From: a phage
DNA: 64,000 nt
Strand: one strand, 5' to 3'
Sequence record: PZ347775.1
Of this stretch, positions 55,437 through 60,527 are shown one piece after another. A program made the translations under genes and the position numbers. The notes under the pieces were generated by a model. It was not told the origin of the DNA, ran no database searches, and worked only from the letters and a program-made list of their open reading frames with translations. Numbering within the stretch: the first letter of the stretch is position 1; every line of letters starts with the position of its first letter.

Positions 55437-56156
55437 TTAGGATTCTTCTAAATGTCTTTTCTGAAAAGTTGATACCATACTACGATACGGTTCATTTGGA
55501 TACCCGTGTTTTATAGCTTCCTTTGTAAATTTTCTCCATCCATATTTAGTTTCTTTCCAAAGCTCGAATAATTCATCTTCATATTGCCATATAGTTAAAT
55601 GAGAACGCTTTGCAGCTTTAATTCCATTAATATGCTTTTCTTTTACTACAGGATTACTTAGTTTCTTTTTAATAATATTACTAACTTTTCTAACAAAAAC
55701 TGGGTCCTTATATCGTTGCGAAGTTTTTATTGAAGTGTTTAATTTAGCTTCCGGTGTGGATGTGACCTCTTTCATCTTTTTCTTCATATGCTGTATATGA
55801 TTAGGATTTTTCCATAAATTTATAGAATGCTTTTTGCATTTTATCCTAGTTTCATCTGCAACCTTTCCTCCTTCACCTCCGTATGACAGGTTAACACAGT
55901 TTTTTCCATATTTCAATTTACCTGCCATGATATATAATATTTCAGCTTGTACCATTTTATCATAATTATCAAAAACTTCTAAAACCGTTTTTGTTAATAT
56001 GTGGTCATTTGACACTTTTACACGTTCTATATAATTTCCACTACCAACATACGAATCATTGATGTTATTAGTTATATGTCGACCATAATAGTATTTCTTA
56101 ATACCTGTCTTTAAATTTAATATTTCAGTTTTATAGATAGTAAAATATTTTTTCAT
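55437..56156 (-). CDS. free-standing GIY-YIG (Seg-like) homing endonuclease
   Basis: N-terminal TIYKTEILNLKTGIKKYYYGRH ... SYVGSG; NUMOD-like repeats; C-terminal ELW...GYPN...YR module shared with the HNH endonuclease. Confidence 0.8.
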   Translation of the reverse strand: MKKYFTIYKTEILNLKTGIKKYYYGRHITNNINDSYVGSGNYIERVKVSNDHILTKTVLEVFDNYDKMVQAEILYIMAGKLKYGKNCVNLSYGGEGGKVADETRIKCKKHSINLWKNPNHIQHMKKKMKEVTSTPEAKLNTSIKTSQRYKDPVFVRKVSNIIKKKLSNPVVKEKHINGIKAAKRSHLTIWQYEDELFELWKETKYGWRKFTKEAIKHGYPNEPYRSMVSTFQKRHLEES

Positions 56157-57121
56157 TTTAATAATACCGTTTCAGCAATTTCTTCCCAACCGTTTTTGTC
56201 GGTCATAATAAAGTCAGCAAGATAAAGAGCAGTACGCAGTGAAACATTGCGTAAACGATTAACATTAACTTTCATCCATGATAATGCTTTATAAGTTTCT
56301 TCATCAGAAAGACCGCGCTTTTGCATCATGTCAGTTGAAAGAATAACATCTTCAACCCTGACCATAATTTCTTCATTAGTGTGAACACCCAAATCCAAAT
56401 AAACTGAGCGGGACACCAATGCTTGTAAGTGTGGAGCAAGTTTAGTACCACGGTCTAATTCGCGGTCAATGTCAACGTTTGTGATAAAAACAATCGTTCC
56501 TTTAAATTCAAACTCACGGTCAATGCCTTTTTCTTCTAAGTAAGAAGATGCAGTGCTCCAGCAGACTTTACGGGTCTCTCCAGTGTCCAGAGCAGCTTTT
56601 AGAAGATTAAGAATGTCCATATCAGAGAAAACATCCACATCATCAATCAAAAGGACAGAATTCTCTTCACGATTATTCCAAAGCTGTTCATAAAGACCAA
56701 TACCAGAGATTTTACCATTAATGCTTTTATATTCAATGTATCCATTATCATTTGCTTTATTTAAAGCTTTATCTAAAGAATACGTTTTACCAATACCTGC
56801 TGCGCCAGAGATAATTAATGAACGAATATTTCCATTAATAATACCATTCGTCATCATTCCCATAACATTAAATCTTTTATTAATGCGGGTTTTCATATCT
56901 TCATATGATTCTTTAACTTCTTCAACTTTTACACCATCATATGAAATATCTGATTTGTAAACCCAAACACCGCGACGTTTACCGTCAATTTCAACAAAAA
57001 CTTTACCATCTCCTTGTGCATCTACCGGAGCATTATCTGGGAACCATTCGCCTAAGAGCTCAAAAGTTCCAGAGATTTCTTTACCGAAGTAGATACCCTT
57101 ATTGATAGTTACAGTTTTCAT
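56153..57121 (-). CDS. AAA+/P-loop ATPase (322 aa)
   Basis: Walker A GAAGIGKT, Walker B LLIDDVD, sensor-1-like FITN; ATG after GGAGAATAAA cassette. Confidence 0.7.
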   Translation of the reverse strand: MKTVTINKGIYFGKEISGTFELLGEWFPDNAPVDAQGDGKVFVEIDGKRRGVWVYKSDISYDGVKVEEVKESYEDMKTRINKRFNVMGMMTNGIINGNIRSLIISGAAGIGKTYSLDKALNKANDNGYIEYKSINGKISGIGLYEQLWNNREENSVLLIDDVDVFSDMDILNLLKAALDTGETRKVCWSTASSYLEEKGIDREFEFKGTIVFITNVDIDRELDRGTKLAPHLQALVSRSVYLDLGVHTNEEIMVRVEDVILSTDMMQKRGLSDEETYKALSWMKVNVNRLRNVSLRTALYLADFIMTDKNGWEEIAETVLLK

Positions 57122-57182
57122 TTTATTCTCCAAATCCGTATCAGTTGATAGTTGTATAGTACCATACCCCCTTTGTGTTGAT

Positions 57183-57668
57183 TTATTCCATTTCTACTAT
57201 ATGCATGTTCTTTTTGCTATCAAAATATATGTTTTTAACTATTAACTCAGAATTAATTGGCAGTAAAAACTCTCTTTCATAATCTACCATACAAAGATTA
57301 TCATAAAGCTTGTTAAGCTTATCATCGTCAGTTTGGCCAGATTCTTCAATTGCGATTAAATTTTCTAAAATGTCAATCATAGCAGTCGAATAGTCAAAAA
57401 CGTTTGCATTTTTTAACACTACTAAAACATTAGTCATATAGCGTTCTGCCGCAAACGTTTCAGCTATATGAGACTCACTGCTAAAGGAAGTTATTCTTTT
57501 AAATTTGATTCTCCTATTAACTTCAAACTTATAAGATAACACTTCCTCTATTGTAAGTCCTCTAAAAAGTGTGTCTTTAATCTCAAGTTTGTCTTTAATG
57601 TAATCATTAACACGCTTATGATTAAAATCATTAATTTTGTTGCCAAGGCATTGCATTAAAATATGCAT
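57183..57668 (-). CDS. ModA/ModB-like R-S-E ADP-ribosyltransferase candidate (161 aa)
   Basis: LFRG / SFSSES / YEREFLLP in ModA-like order and spacing; GAGGAG SD; own early promoter. Confidence 0.6.
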   Translation of the reverse strand: MHILMQCLGNKINDFNHKRVNDYIKDKLEIKDTLFRGLTIEEVLSYKFEVNRRIKFKRITSFSSESHIAETFAAERYMTNVLVVLKNANVFDYSTAMIDILENLIAIEESGQTDDDKLNKLYDNLCMVDYEREFLLPINSELIVKNIYFDSKKNMHIVEME

Positions 57669-57714: not shown

Positions 57715-57744
57715 ATTATAATATGCTTTGCGATAGAAGTAAAC
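57715..57744 (-). promoter_or_regulatory. T4-type early promoter
   Basis: -35 GTTTAC (57739-57744), 18 nt, -10 TATAAT (57715-57720). Confidence 0.5.
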
Positions 57745-57772
57745 AACTTTGTGACGTCATTTTAAACAAAAA

Positions 57773-57790
57773 AGGGAGCCCGAAGGCTCC
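57773..57790 (-). terminator. UUCG-tetraloop hairpin / terminator after nucleotidyltransferase operon
   Basis: gggagcc-cgaa-ggctccc immediately 3-prime of the 57794 ORF. Confidence 0.5.
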
Positions 57791-57793
57791 CTA

Positions 57794-58807
57794 TCATTTA
57801 TAATAACTTCGGTGGTTTTCAAGATAAACCCTCTCAAGGAAGTCATCCCAGAAACCCATGTCTACTTTTTGCTGCATACCGTTCTTAGAAGCTTCAATGG
57901 ATGCTGCTTCTACTTGATCGACCACATCTTCCAAAAACTCTTGAACAGTTTTAAATGGATGCTTACCCAACTTCACGTCGAGAATAAACGGAGCATCTTG
58001 GAGTGGATAAACCAAGTCACCAGTTTTGTAAATTTCCAATAGTTGGAGTCCACCACGACAAGCATGGCTCAAAGCTTTCCAGTCAATGCCCTCATTCGCT
58101 TCAGCTTTACGAGCGCGTTCACCGTATTCGGCATCAAGTTTATTCAAAGACTGCTTAAGCTCAATAAGAGAAAGTGTTGTCTGATATTTACGACCCAACA
58201 CGGTATAGAACGTTTGAGGGCCTGTTTTCTCATGATTATGGAATACCCATTCGCAGAATTCGTTCTCTGGAAGACGATGCTTAATATCTTCAACTTTAGT
58301 GCGACGTTGCTTAATAGAACCATCTTCTTGGTAATCAACCCACTGGTCAGGGATTTGATTAACTACTTTCAATACATCACGTAATGCGGCCAAACGAGAA
58401 CCCTTAACACCATATTTAGAAGCTTGCTTGCGAACATATCCTAAATAGGATTTCATGTTAGTTGTATAAAACCGTGAACGATTGTCTTGAATAAACTTCC
58501 ATACATCAGGCAAATCAGATTTAACTACCAGTTCAGGTGGAGTGTGGAGCATATCCAATGCTACGGTTTCACCATCTGCTGCTAATTTAAAGAAATACTT
58601 AAGACTGTATAGTTCATGGTCAATATCATTTTTAGTGTTTTTAGATGATGTGTTGTTAGTGTTTTTACTCATATGCTCTTTAACATTTCCGATAAGAATA
58701 TCGCGAGCAGGAGGAACAAAGATTTCTTTAAAATCTACATCAGATTCTGGTGTAGAAGTTCCATAAAGATGACTACCAAAATAGCTTTTCATTACTGTTT
58801 TCATCAT
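57794..58807 (-). CDS. Pol-beta superfamily nucleotidyltransferase (337 aa)
   Basis: N-terminal hG[GS]x10DhDh motif: YFGSHLYGTSTPESDVDF; remainder helical; overlaps upstream gene by ATGA. Confidence 0.65.
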   Translation of the reverse strand: MMKTVMKSYFGSHLYGTSTPESDVDFKEIFVPPARDILIGNVKEHMSKNTNNTSSKNTKNDIDHELYSLKYFFKLAADGETVALDMLHTPPELVVKSDLPDVWKFIQDNRSRFYTTNMKSYLGYVRKQASKYGVKGSRLAALRDVLKVVNQIPDQWVDYQEDGSIKQRRTKVEDIKHRLPENEFCEWVFHNHEKTGPQTFYTVLGRKYQTTLSLIELKQSLNKLDAEYGERARKAEANEGIDWKALSHACRGGLQLLEIYKTGDLVYPLQDAPFILDVKLGKHPFKTVQEFLEDVVDQVEAASIEASKNGMQQKVDMGFWDDFLERVYLENHRSYYK

Positions 58808-59265
58808 TCAGCCTTATATTCAATAACAGGACATACTTTAGCTTTACGCGCTTTTAAAAATTCGACGATAATAGATTTCTTTGGTTGAATAGGAGGTAAA
58901 CCTTTATACGCCCTATCAATATTTTCTACATGTAAAGCATAATCCTTTTTCCATTTATAATCTTTATATTTTTCATGCAGTTGTGCAGGAATAACAAATG
59001 AACCGATAATAAGTAAAACAAGCAAAATGGCAAGTATAAATGCCGATGGAATAAGAGTCCATAAACTACCAAAAATAAGCCATTTCTGCATGATTTCTGC
59101 GCAGATGATAGTTAGACCTGCGAGTATAGTACATCCGAAAAAAGAAACAAAAAATGTAGGAATAACAATAGACCAAAAGTATGCACACAGTGTCTTAGGT
59201 CGTTTCCATTCATCATTAAACATTTTGAATAATTTATAGTGCCAAGAGCTTTCATTAATAATCAT
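58804..59265 (-). CDS. membrane protein (153 aa, about three TM helices)
   Basis: Hydrophobic segments; translationally coupled to nucleotidyltransferase. Confidence 0.6.
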   Translation of the reverse strand: MIINESSWHYKLFKMFNDEWKRPKTLCAYFWSIVIPTFFVSFFGCTILAGLTIICAEIMQKWLIFGSLWTLIPSAFILAILLVLLIIGSFVIPAQLHEKYKDYKWKKDYALHVENIDRAYKGLPPIQPKKSIIVEFLKARKAKVCPVIEYKAE

Positions 59266-59267
59266 AA

Positions 59268-59789
59268 TTATCCTTTCATTGAAGGTGTAACGGTTGTTAA
59301 ATACTTAATCATGGCTTCAGCTTCTGATTTTGATAATGAAATTTCTCCATTGTTTTGACGAATAGAAATAAAATCCGGATGACGGTCACCACCAGCTTTT
59401 AAAACACACATATAAGTATCAGTTTCATCTTCAATATTTGAAATGATTGAAGCAGTTCCGCATGAATGTGGTTTTTGATAAATCAATACAGCTTTTCTTC
59501 CACCGTTTGACTGTTCATAAACTTTTAACACATCAAACAAATCGCTTCTTTTATCAATAGCTAAGATGTTGTTTTCATCTTCAATGTTAAATCCTTCGGA
59601 TACTTCATAAAGTGTCACCCATAAATCGCCAATATCGATAGTAGTATTTTCCTTTCCATGACTTTCAAGAGCGTGACAAATTTTCTTAATTTCGTCATAA
59701 CTCATTTTAACAATATCATCTCCTTGAATAAGGAAGATGTCATTTTTAAATTCAACACGAATTAAACCGCTTTCACTTGAAATAAACAT
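59268..59789 (-). CDS. hypothetical protein (173 aa), paralog of next gene
   Basis: Shares GFNIE and C-terminal EAEAMIKYLTTVTPSM block with 59796..60338. Confidence 0.55.
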   Translation of the reverse strand: MFISSESGLIRVEFKNDIFLIQGDDIVKMSYDEIKKICHALESHGKENTTIDIGDLWVTLYEVSEGFNIEDENNILAIDKRSDLFDVLKVYEQSNGGRKAVLIYQKPHSCGTASIISNIEDETDTYMCVLKAGGDRHPDFISIRQNNGEISLSKSEAEAMIKYLTTVTPSMKG

Positions 59790-59795
59790 ATTTCC

Positions 59796-60338
59796 TCACT
59801 TTGAAATCATAGTTGGAATGACAGAATCAAGATAAGTCTTTAGCGCAATAGCTTCATCTTTGGTAAATGTGACAATATGCGCTCGAAAATCATCAATTTG
59901 ACGAATAGTTAAGACATCTCCTTCTTCATAACATTTTGATACATTTAAAACAGTTTCATCATTCTGATCGCACTGATCGCAAGCGTTAGTAATAATAGCA
60001 TTGCAATTTTTAAGCCATTTTAAACTATGTTTTCTTTCATTAGAATAATAAAAATATTTAATGTAAGTTATAAAATTATCCCAATTATTAATTGATAAGC
60101 ATATTGACTCGCTTTCAATATTAAATCCTGGGCATAAAGAATAAAAATGAATTTTATGCTCATCATTAATGCTTACAATTTTATCGGTGTAAGGTTTTTC
60201 AATTTGGGTTAAATGAATAATTTCGCTAGGCGTAAAATATAGCATATCGTCTTCTTGCGTCAAACGATACATATTATTTACTTTTTCTATAGCCAATTCA
60301 CCAAAAAGTGAACTAACTTCTAGTACTAATCGTTTCAT
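59796..60338 (-). CDS. hypothetical protein (about 180 aa), paralog of previous gene
   Basis: C-terminal DEAIALKTYLDSVIPTM; start either ATG 60338 or GTG 60362. Confidence 0.55.
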   Translation of the reverse strand: MKRLVLEVSSLFGELAIEKVNNMYRLTQEDDMLYFTPSEIIHLTQIEKPYTDKIVSINDEHKIHFYSLCPGFNIESESICLSINNWDNFITYIKYFYYSNERKHSLKWLKNCNAIITNACDQCDQNDETVLNVSKCYEEGDVLTIRQIDDFRAHIVTFTKDEAIALKTYLDSVIPTMISK

Positions 60339-60364
60339 ATTGATTCTCTTCGACTCACTCACAA

Positions 60365-60469
60365 TTACATACTCCTTTGAATAATATCAATAATATTGTT
60401 CACCAGATTATAAGTAAACATCGGGTGATTATATTGAATCATCACATACACAACAAACAAAACTTTCAT
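60365..60469 (-). CDS. 34-aa hydrophobic micro-ORF
   Basis: AGGAG SD 6 nt before ATG; own GTTTAC/TATAGT promoter; MKVLFVVYVMIQYNHPMFTYNLVNNIIDIIQRSM. Confidence 0.35.
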   Translation of the reverse strand: MKVLFVVYVMIQYNHPMFTYNLVNNIIDIIQRSM

Positions 60470-60497: not shown

Positions 60498-60527
60498 ACT
60501 ATACCATAACCTTGCCAACTTGTAAAC
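60498..60527 (-). promoter_or_regulatory. T4-type early promoter
   Basis: -35 GTTTAC (60522-60527), 18 nt, -10 TATAGT (60498-60503). Confidence 0.5.

Follow-up and report, generated by a model that had tools for sequence, protein, structure and literature searches.

The RlaP family of nucleotidyltransferases (NTases) reportedly received its name from Burroughs and Aravind in 2016. Two RlaPs from Pseudomonas (P. fluorescens and P. aeruginosa) add one or two nucleoside monophosphates to RNA 3'-OH ends, prefer Mn2+, do not act on DNA or protein, label many cellular RNAs with little nucleoside triphosphate (NTP) specificity, and partly rescue the aminoacylation of tRNA missing one anticodon-loop nucleotide (PMC12776372). 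RlaP has been proposed as an antidote to nucleases that excise the wobble nucleotide, such as RloC, and NrdC.11 of phage T4 falls in cluster 5 of the RlaP similarity network of Carruthers, Fatma and Huang 2025 (bioRxiv; PMC12776372). Iyer et al. 2021 (PMC7824862) made the same RNA-repair prediction for phages, wobble excision by RloC and the repair by T4 of PrrC damage have been described (PMC2610378), and a match of nrdC.11 to the COG3541 NTases was reported already in 2006 (PMC1524935). The T4 nrdC.11-mobD.3 fragment is deletable (PMC9825161), and T4 NrdC.11 is annotated as 'nucleotidyltransferase' in RefSeq (NP_049709.1). Both the family assignment of the NTase and the tRNA-repair hypothesis are thus already published. 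Here we describe the nrdC.11 locus in 64,000 nucleotides of phage DNA (sequence record PZ347775.1; this whole stretch is the window referred to below), where five minus-strand genes between positions 57,794 and 60,469 encode, in order, a 34-residue protein, two paralogous proteins (A and B), a membrane protein, and the ortholog of T4 NrdC.11. We consider it probable, with reasonable but far from full confidence, that NrdC.11 is an RlaP-type RNA 3'-end NTase serving phage tRNA repair and that its neighbours are independent accessory early genes.

The NTase gene (57794-58807, minus strand) encodes a 337-residue protein that is confidently identified as a Pol-beta nucleotidyltransferase. The protein passes the gathering score of the RlaP family (PF10127) with 42 bits against a cut-off of 23 (E 1.1e-10), the match covering residues 7-135 only (profile positions 23-142 of 249), and all close homologs bear a precomputed PF10127 match. 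An exhaustive search yields 3398 cluster representatives. In an alignment of 46 full-length homologs (34-55% identity), there is no variation at G11, S12, G16, S22, D23, D25, N57, and D63, and almost none at D85. The AlphaFold2 model (predicted local distance difference test, pLDDT, 93.7) contains a strand at residues 3-10, the GS turn and a short helix, a strand at 24-31 associated with D23 and D25, and a strand at 62-68 bearing D63. The GS...DVD segment, which an earlier note on this DNA had read as an NTase signature, thus forms the expected strand-turn-helix-strand arrangement with invariant residues, and the third catalytic acidic residue that the note had proposed to locate is predicted to be D63. 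Profile-profile alignment (hhalign) with 15 canonical RlaPs extends over residues 6-132 with a probability of 92.6% (E 4.6e-7), and places D23, D25, and D63 opposite three Asp residues that are invariant there, D50, D52, and D83. All elements of the RlaP core are present, with hG[GS], DxD, and a third catalytic Asp on the core strand that follows; G11-S12, D23, D25, and D63 are predicted to be the catalytic residues, and the NrdC.11 clade is a divergent RlaP subfamily.

Fold searches with the NTase return top matches that are all Pol-beta NTases, none of them close, with KNTase, LinB, and DrrA ranking lower; CD-NTase, OAS, and cGAS are not among these matches. Enzymes with this core are not confined to RNA, and the NTase might instead modify a small molecule in the manner of aminoglycoside or lincosamide NTases, AMPylate a protein as do MNT and DrrA, or produce a cyclic or linear nucleotide signal like the CD-NTases. 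Such a substrate is highly improbable, given that the matches to these enzymes do not exceed what a shared generic Pol-beta core would give, that RlaP is the sole family above its curated threshold while Pfam, NCBIfam, and PADLOC give no match to CD-NTase, OAS, or MNT families, that no HEPN partner is found, that the assayed RlaPs left protein and DNA unlabelled, and that the genomic context of the cellular homologs is RNA repair, as detailed below. The NCBIfam and PADLOC scans return nothing for any of the five proteins. Two specific candidates are rejected: a CD-NTase or other signal generator, which has no sequence or fold support, and an MNT-HEPN pair, for which neither an MNT family match nor a HEPN partner is present. 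The earlier proposal of a module that generates or modifies a nucleotide signal is likewise set aside, as Pfam, NCBIfam, PADLOC, and fold searches contain no CD-NTase or defence-system signal.

The genomic surroundings of cellular homologs were scanned using one genome per GTDB species, with neighbouring genes clustered and compared with Pfam over a 5-kb reach. Full-length NrdC.11-type proteins of 31-54% identity are encoded at 80 bacterial and archaeal loci, distributed among Desulfobacterales, Nitrospirota, Alphaproteobacteria, and some archaea, several of them on Mb-scale contigs. Canonical RlaP, Pnkp, Hen1, or RtcB is encoded within 5 kb at 27 of the 80 loci, often in same-strand operons (Pnkp at 7, Hen1 at 5, RtcB at 6), and at ∼17 of them a canonical full-length RlaP (253 bits) follows directly downstream of the NrdC.11-type gene. 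One locus (L144, 1088-6802) has the order Hen1-Pnkp-NrdC.11type-RlaP with overlapping stops and starts, and another (L126, 2712-8161) the order RtcB ... NrdC.11type-RlaP-Hen1. Because each of these repair genes occurs about once per genome at most, their proximity is far above chance. The NrdC.11 clade itself, beyond PF10127 in general, is tied to RNA repair by context. Moreover, since the NrdC.11-type gene is often a separate gene directly upstream of canonical RlaP in bacteria, the two NTases in tandem are probably non-redundant paralogs.

For the phage protein, we infer an RNA substrate and a repair role during infection. A host anticodon nuclease such as RloC would remove the wobble nucleotide and leave a tRNA 5' half, one likely substrate of NrdC.11, which would patch the nuclease-trimmed 3' end, whereupon the phage polynucleotide kinase/phosphatase and RNA ligase would reseal a usable tRNA. 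The two y05I paralogs, the membrane protein, and mobD.2 would be separate accessory early genes carried on one transcript with nrdC.11. Among the functions suggested beforehand, tRNA or RNA tailing as a counter-defence is the one that fits RlaP membership, the 3'-OH addition assayed in bacterial members, and the Pnkp/Hen1/RtcB operons.

Several observations weigh against this reading. RlaP homology is not full-length: it stops short of the C-terminal helical domain, nothing is alignable beyond residue 132, and the C-terminal two thirds of the NTase, which include a beta subdomain at ∼155-209, differ from RlaP, so that substrate specificity could differ from that of canonical RlaP. Sequence searches of the PDB with the NTase, using either the single sequence or the 46-sequence profile, give no meaningful match. 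The assayed RlaPs are the two Pseudomonas enzymes only, neither of which belongs to the NrdC.11 clade, and 53 of the 80 cellular loci have no recognised RNA-repair neighbour. Viral loci were compared in a set of 78 from IMG/VR, ordered by NTase identity, with neighbouring genes counted in the flanks; no RNA ligase is among the recurrent NTase neighbours in these flanks, and the recurrent neighbours in distant T4-like phages are genes of nicotinamide adenine dinucleotide (NAD) salvage. Finally, in 35 of the 36 viral loci with at least 62% NTase identity the membrane gene is placed upstream of the NTase gene, an order that could reflect a functional link instead of inherited gene order; where NTase identity is at least 76% (Tequatro-, Mosig-, and Dhakavirus types), and only there, it abuts or overlaps the NTase start.

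An RNA-directed activity other than repair is one alternative, in which the NTase, during takeover, tails host or phage transcripts or tRNA 3' ends and so changes how stable they are or how they function. This reading has the same support from fold and family as repair does, and both the broad RNA labelling with little NTP specificity of characterised RlaPs and the lack of linkage between the phage gene and RNA ligase genes agree with it. Even so, we regard tailing of this kind as unlikely, as the cellular homologs of the clade lie within Pnkp/Hen1/RtcB repair operons and the assayed family members add just one or two nucleotides.

The gene order bears on a different alternative, a dedicated module of two components (membrane protein and NTase) or of three, if the y05I proteins belong to it. 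It would be either a membrane-tethered NTase or a pair resembling Hailong, in which an oligonucleotide made by the NTase controls the membrane protein and which the phage uses for exclusion or as an anti-defence decoy. According to the summary of Tan et al. 2025 in PMC13434031, Hailong is a host defence system composed of an NTase (HalB) and a membrane ion channel (HalA), and it is this two-gene logic, together with a fold match of the NTase to HalB, that prompts the Hailong-like version. In addition to the upstream position of the membrane gene in viral loci, which extends to some Acinetobacter phages, the membrane gene stop and the NTase start overlap as ATGA. A dedicated module is nevertheless distinctly unlikely in our judgement. 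T4 retains an intact NTase and has neither the membrane gene nor paralog B. T2 (L001, LC348380, 3707-5224) has frameshifts that split both the membrane gene and paralog A, with paralog B annotated as a pair of short coding sequences, while nrdC.11, beside these fragments, is intact and 98.5% identical; truncated membrane-gene variants occur in several other Tequatroviruses as well. A second T2 record also has the membrane gene in two pieces. At 62-69% NTase identity, the membrane gene is 0.4-1.8 kb from the NTase, and in Jiaodavirus and Karamvirus three unrelated genes without Pfam matches stand between them. Below 60% NTase identity, the membrane gene is missing from 34 of 42 viral loci (∼8 have one) and y05I is found in none; in KVP40, Cr30, and Aes012 the NTase has no membrane gene next to it. 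All 80 cellular loci have the NTase without any homolog of the membrane protein, y05I, mobD.2, or the downstream gene NrdC.10.

Two further considerations reduce the weight of the shared gene order. Broad synteny is the rule among T4-like genomes and makes conserved order weak as evidence of a functional link. The ATGA overlap, from which translational coupling had been deduced, does exist, but it is nothing special, since 15 of 107 (14%) consecutive minus-strand open reading frame junctions in the window have the same overlap, which is therefore the normal packing of this genome. In tblastn searches of the phage collection the counts are nested, with the NTase in 1514 phage records, the membrane gene in 860, and paralog B in 444, nearly all of the last Tequatrovirus. 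Together with the absence from T4, the fragments in T2, and the 80 partnerless cellular loci, these counts leave unsupported the earlier view of the five genes as one coupled module; across related phages the genes are largely distributed independently of one another. We therefore return to the reading of NrdC.11 as an RNA-repair NTase, alongside which the neighbouring genes would act independently.

The membrane protein (58804-59265, minus strand; 153 residues) belongs to phrog_944, the family of RB69 ORF104c. It has two hydrophobic blocks of ∼32 residues each (27-58 and 62-95), Lys/Arg-rich termini on both sides of them, and a Lys-rich C-terminal tail. Because the termini flanking the hydrophobic blocks are both basic, an even number of membrane passes is favoured, and two or four, as judged from the sequence, would suit the positive-inside rule better than three; the initial description of a 3-TM protein therefore stands as to the membrane, less so as to the number of passes. 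Family motifs are SWHxxL...LCxYFW at the N-terminus and KA(R/K)KxKxCPxIEF at the C-terminus. A word-index search for homologs gave close relatives only, and tblastn and an iterated hidden Markov model search reached further. For this protein no Pfam match rises above threshold, and a PDB sequence search at E up to 10 finds no chain, HalA included; a HalA-like partner is rejected on this sequence comparison.

The tightest conserved pair in the region joins the membrane gene to y05I and not to the NTase: y05I, or a stand-alone y05I_C, lies directly upstream of the membrane gene across genera. In Jiaodavirus and Karamvirus (L005, 3274-3992; L006, 3234-3953), a y05I_C protein of 74-81 residues (PF24448, E 4e-24 and 1e-17) is encoded immediately upstream of the membrane gene, and the pairing of y05I_C with the membrane gene is on this account more conserved than that of the membrane gene with the NTase. 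In the window the domain occurs in fused form in two proteins. Paralog A, the ortholog of T4 mobD.1 (y05I), occupies 59796-60338 on the minus strand when read from an ATG (180 residues), or extends to 60362 from a GTG (188 residues); the GTG start at 60362 has a better Shine-Dalgarno sequence than the ATG at 60338, and database homologs come in both lengths. Paralog B (59268-59789, minus strand; 173 residues) is a second y05I-like protein that has no match in the T4 locus. The two are 28% identical (E 7e-11), and each carries T4_y05I_N and T4_y05I_C (PF24449 and PF24448) above the gathering score, with 137 and 82 bits in paralog A and 111 and 84 bits in paralog B, which bears out their description as paralogs. 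Paralog A contains a 9-bp tandem duplication at 59964-59981 (minus strand), in which TGCGATCAG occurs twice and gives CDQCDQ, and which most homologs lack. Protein P0303, from metagenomic Tequatrovirus contigs, is a natural chimera of the N-terminal part of paralog A and the C-terminal part of paralog B, indicating recombinational deletion between the two paralogs.

The y05I N-domain has a repeated beta-beta-beta-beta-alpha unit that superposes on PUR/Whirly structures (Pur-alpha, trypanosome MRP1/2, and plant Whirly/PBF-2) at 4-11% identity, suggesting a single-stranded nucleic-acid-binding fold, with binding itself predicted from the modelled fold. The model of the y05I_C domain is of poor quality (pLDDT ∼50). 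These features allow a more elaborate arrangement to be imagined, in which the Tevenvirinae block consisting of the y05I C-domain, the membrane protein, zero to three further genes, and NrdC.11 is a membrane-associated nucleic-acid module that T4 and T2 have secondarily lost. The membrane protein might in such a module be controlled by what the NTase makes, or by an RNA or DNA end that the NTase has modified and the PUR/Whirly-like protein has bound. If this were true, the phage would carry an analogue, or a decoy, of the NTase/ion-channel logic of Hailong, but we hold such an arrangement to be very doubtful.

The window as a whole is that of a Tequatrovirus (a T4-like, T-even phage). The 3.1-kb region matches 691 phage records, nearly all of them T-even phages of Escherichia, Shigella, and Yersinia, with 92-98% identity across T-even phages; the closest DNA match is phage W143 (97.6%), and T2 is at 92.3%. 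The segment is the nrdC.11-mobD.2 stretch of the Tequatrovirus early transcription unit in the form without the mobD homing endonuclease. The five co-directional genes reported previously between a promoter and a UUCG hairpin are all found where they had been placed, all on the minus strand, with intergenic gaps in gene order of 26, 6, 2, and -4 nt, the last being the ATGA junction. Identity to T4 is 88% for mobD.2, 84% for mobD.1, and 97.6% for NrdC.11. The nrdC.11-mobD-mobD.1-mobD.2 region of T4 agrees with the present one in gene order, strand, and terminator hairpin, whereas the HNH homing endonuclease gene mobD, which had been expected at this position and is seen there in the T4 record, sits where the present phage has paralog B and the membrane gene. 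HY01, W143, and RB32 also have paralog B and the membrane gene in place of mobD, and the window confirms that the mobD-free arrangement is widespread.

The first gene of the block, the 34-residue micro-ORF (60365-60469, minus strand; phrog_3515), is preceded by AAGGAG and is the ortholog of T4 mobD.2, being 88-97% identical in T4, T2, and HY01. It had been called hydrophobic; the reading frame is real, but its hydrophobicity is only partial, no 19-residue window exceeding 1.6 on the Kyte-Doolittle scale. Upstream of it, a consensus scan detects a sigma-70-type, T4 early-like promoter at 60526..60498 (60498..60526 in ascending coordinates, minus strand), TTTACA-17-TATAGT with a TG extension and a 10/12 match. 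Promoter-like sites are not enriched across the region (34 found against 27 expected), and the 29-mer of this promoter is identical in T2, HY01, and one IMG/VR Tequatrovirus locus. The same scan detects a hairpin at 57792..57773 with an 8-bp stem, 6 GC pairs, a UUCG loop, and a T-run; this intrinsic-terminator-like element (57766..57792 with the T-run, minus strand) directly follows the NTase stop codon, and its 18-mer core is identical after nrdC.11 in T2, HY01, T4, and three IMG/VR loci. The early promoter and the hairpin described earlier are thus both recovered, and both are conserved in T2 and HY01, the hairpin also in T4. Two additional sigma-70-like sites with 10/12 matches lie on the minus strand inside the membrane gene (59006-59033) and inside paralog A (60236-60263); they may serve as internal promoters or may have arisen by chance in AT-rich sequence.

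Downstream of the hairpin, between nrdC.11 and nrdC.10, a gene at 57183-57668 (minus strand) encodes a 161-residue ModA/ModB-like ADP-ribosyltransferase paralog (phrog_832, E 7e-24, no Pfam match) with readable R-S-ExE-type motifs (LFRG, SFSS, EREF) and a promoter-like site of its own at 57743..57715. The gene is present in T2 and HY01, whereas T4 has none between nrdC.11 and nrdC.10. NrdC.10 itself (56153-57133, minus strand) is an AAA/STAND-like ATPase with weak nSTAND3, AAA_16, and AAA_22 matches below the Pfam cut-offs, and it lies downstream of nrdC.11 in 33 of the 78 viral loci. The NAD-salvage neighbours in distant T4-like phages (NTase identity 40-59%; for example L070, 2475-3587, and L078, 8417-10015) are a NadR-like NMNAT-Nudix gene (10 loci) and NAMPT (7 loci). 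Other recurrent genes near the NTase in such phages are Dcm, UvrD, and Band7.

Every part of the locus has its ortholog among catalogued T-even genes and falls into Pfam and PHROG families that already exist; the block is already known and ordinary, and it constitutes no new kind of system, its family, annotation, and functional hypothesis being in databases and literature already. What is added is the occurrence of the NrdC.11-type clade in Pnkp/Hen1/RtcB operons, often in tandem with canonical RlaP, which helps in choosing experiments. Remaining interest attaches to the biochemistry of the NrdC.11 clade, to the bacterial tandems of this clade with canonical RlaP, and to the conserved y05I_C-membrane gene pair. 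Compared with Hailong, the NTase is 15% identical to HalB and has no profile-level sequence match to it; the pairing of NTase and membrane protein is obligate there but not here, T4, distant phages, and cellular loci having the NTase without the partner; and Hailong is a host defence system, whereas the present genes are phage early genes. Compared with canonical RlaP, NrdC.11 has in common the Pol-beta core with the GS motif and three aligning catalytic Asp residues, whereas its clade is ∼70-90 residues longer and has the beta subdomain and a different helical C-terminus. The association of RlaP homologs with RtcB and with Pnkp/Hen1 operons is likewise seen in the cellular loci of the NrdC.11 clade. 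The classic tRNA-repair counter-defence that T4 mounts with Pnk and Rnl1 would be complete if NrdC.11 puts back the nucleotides that RloC and other "smart" anticodon nucleases cut out.

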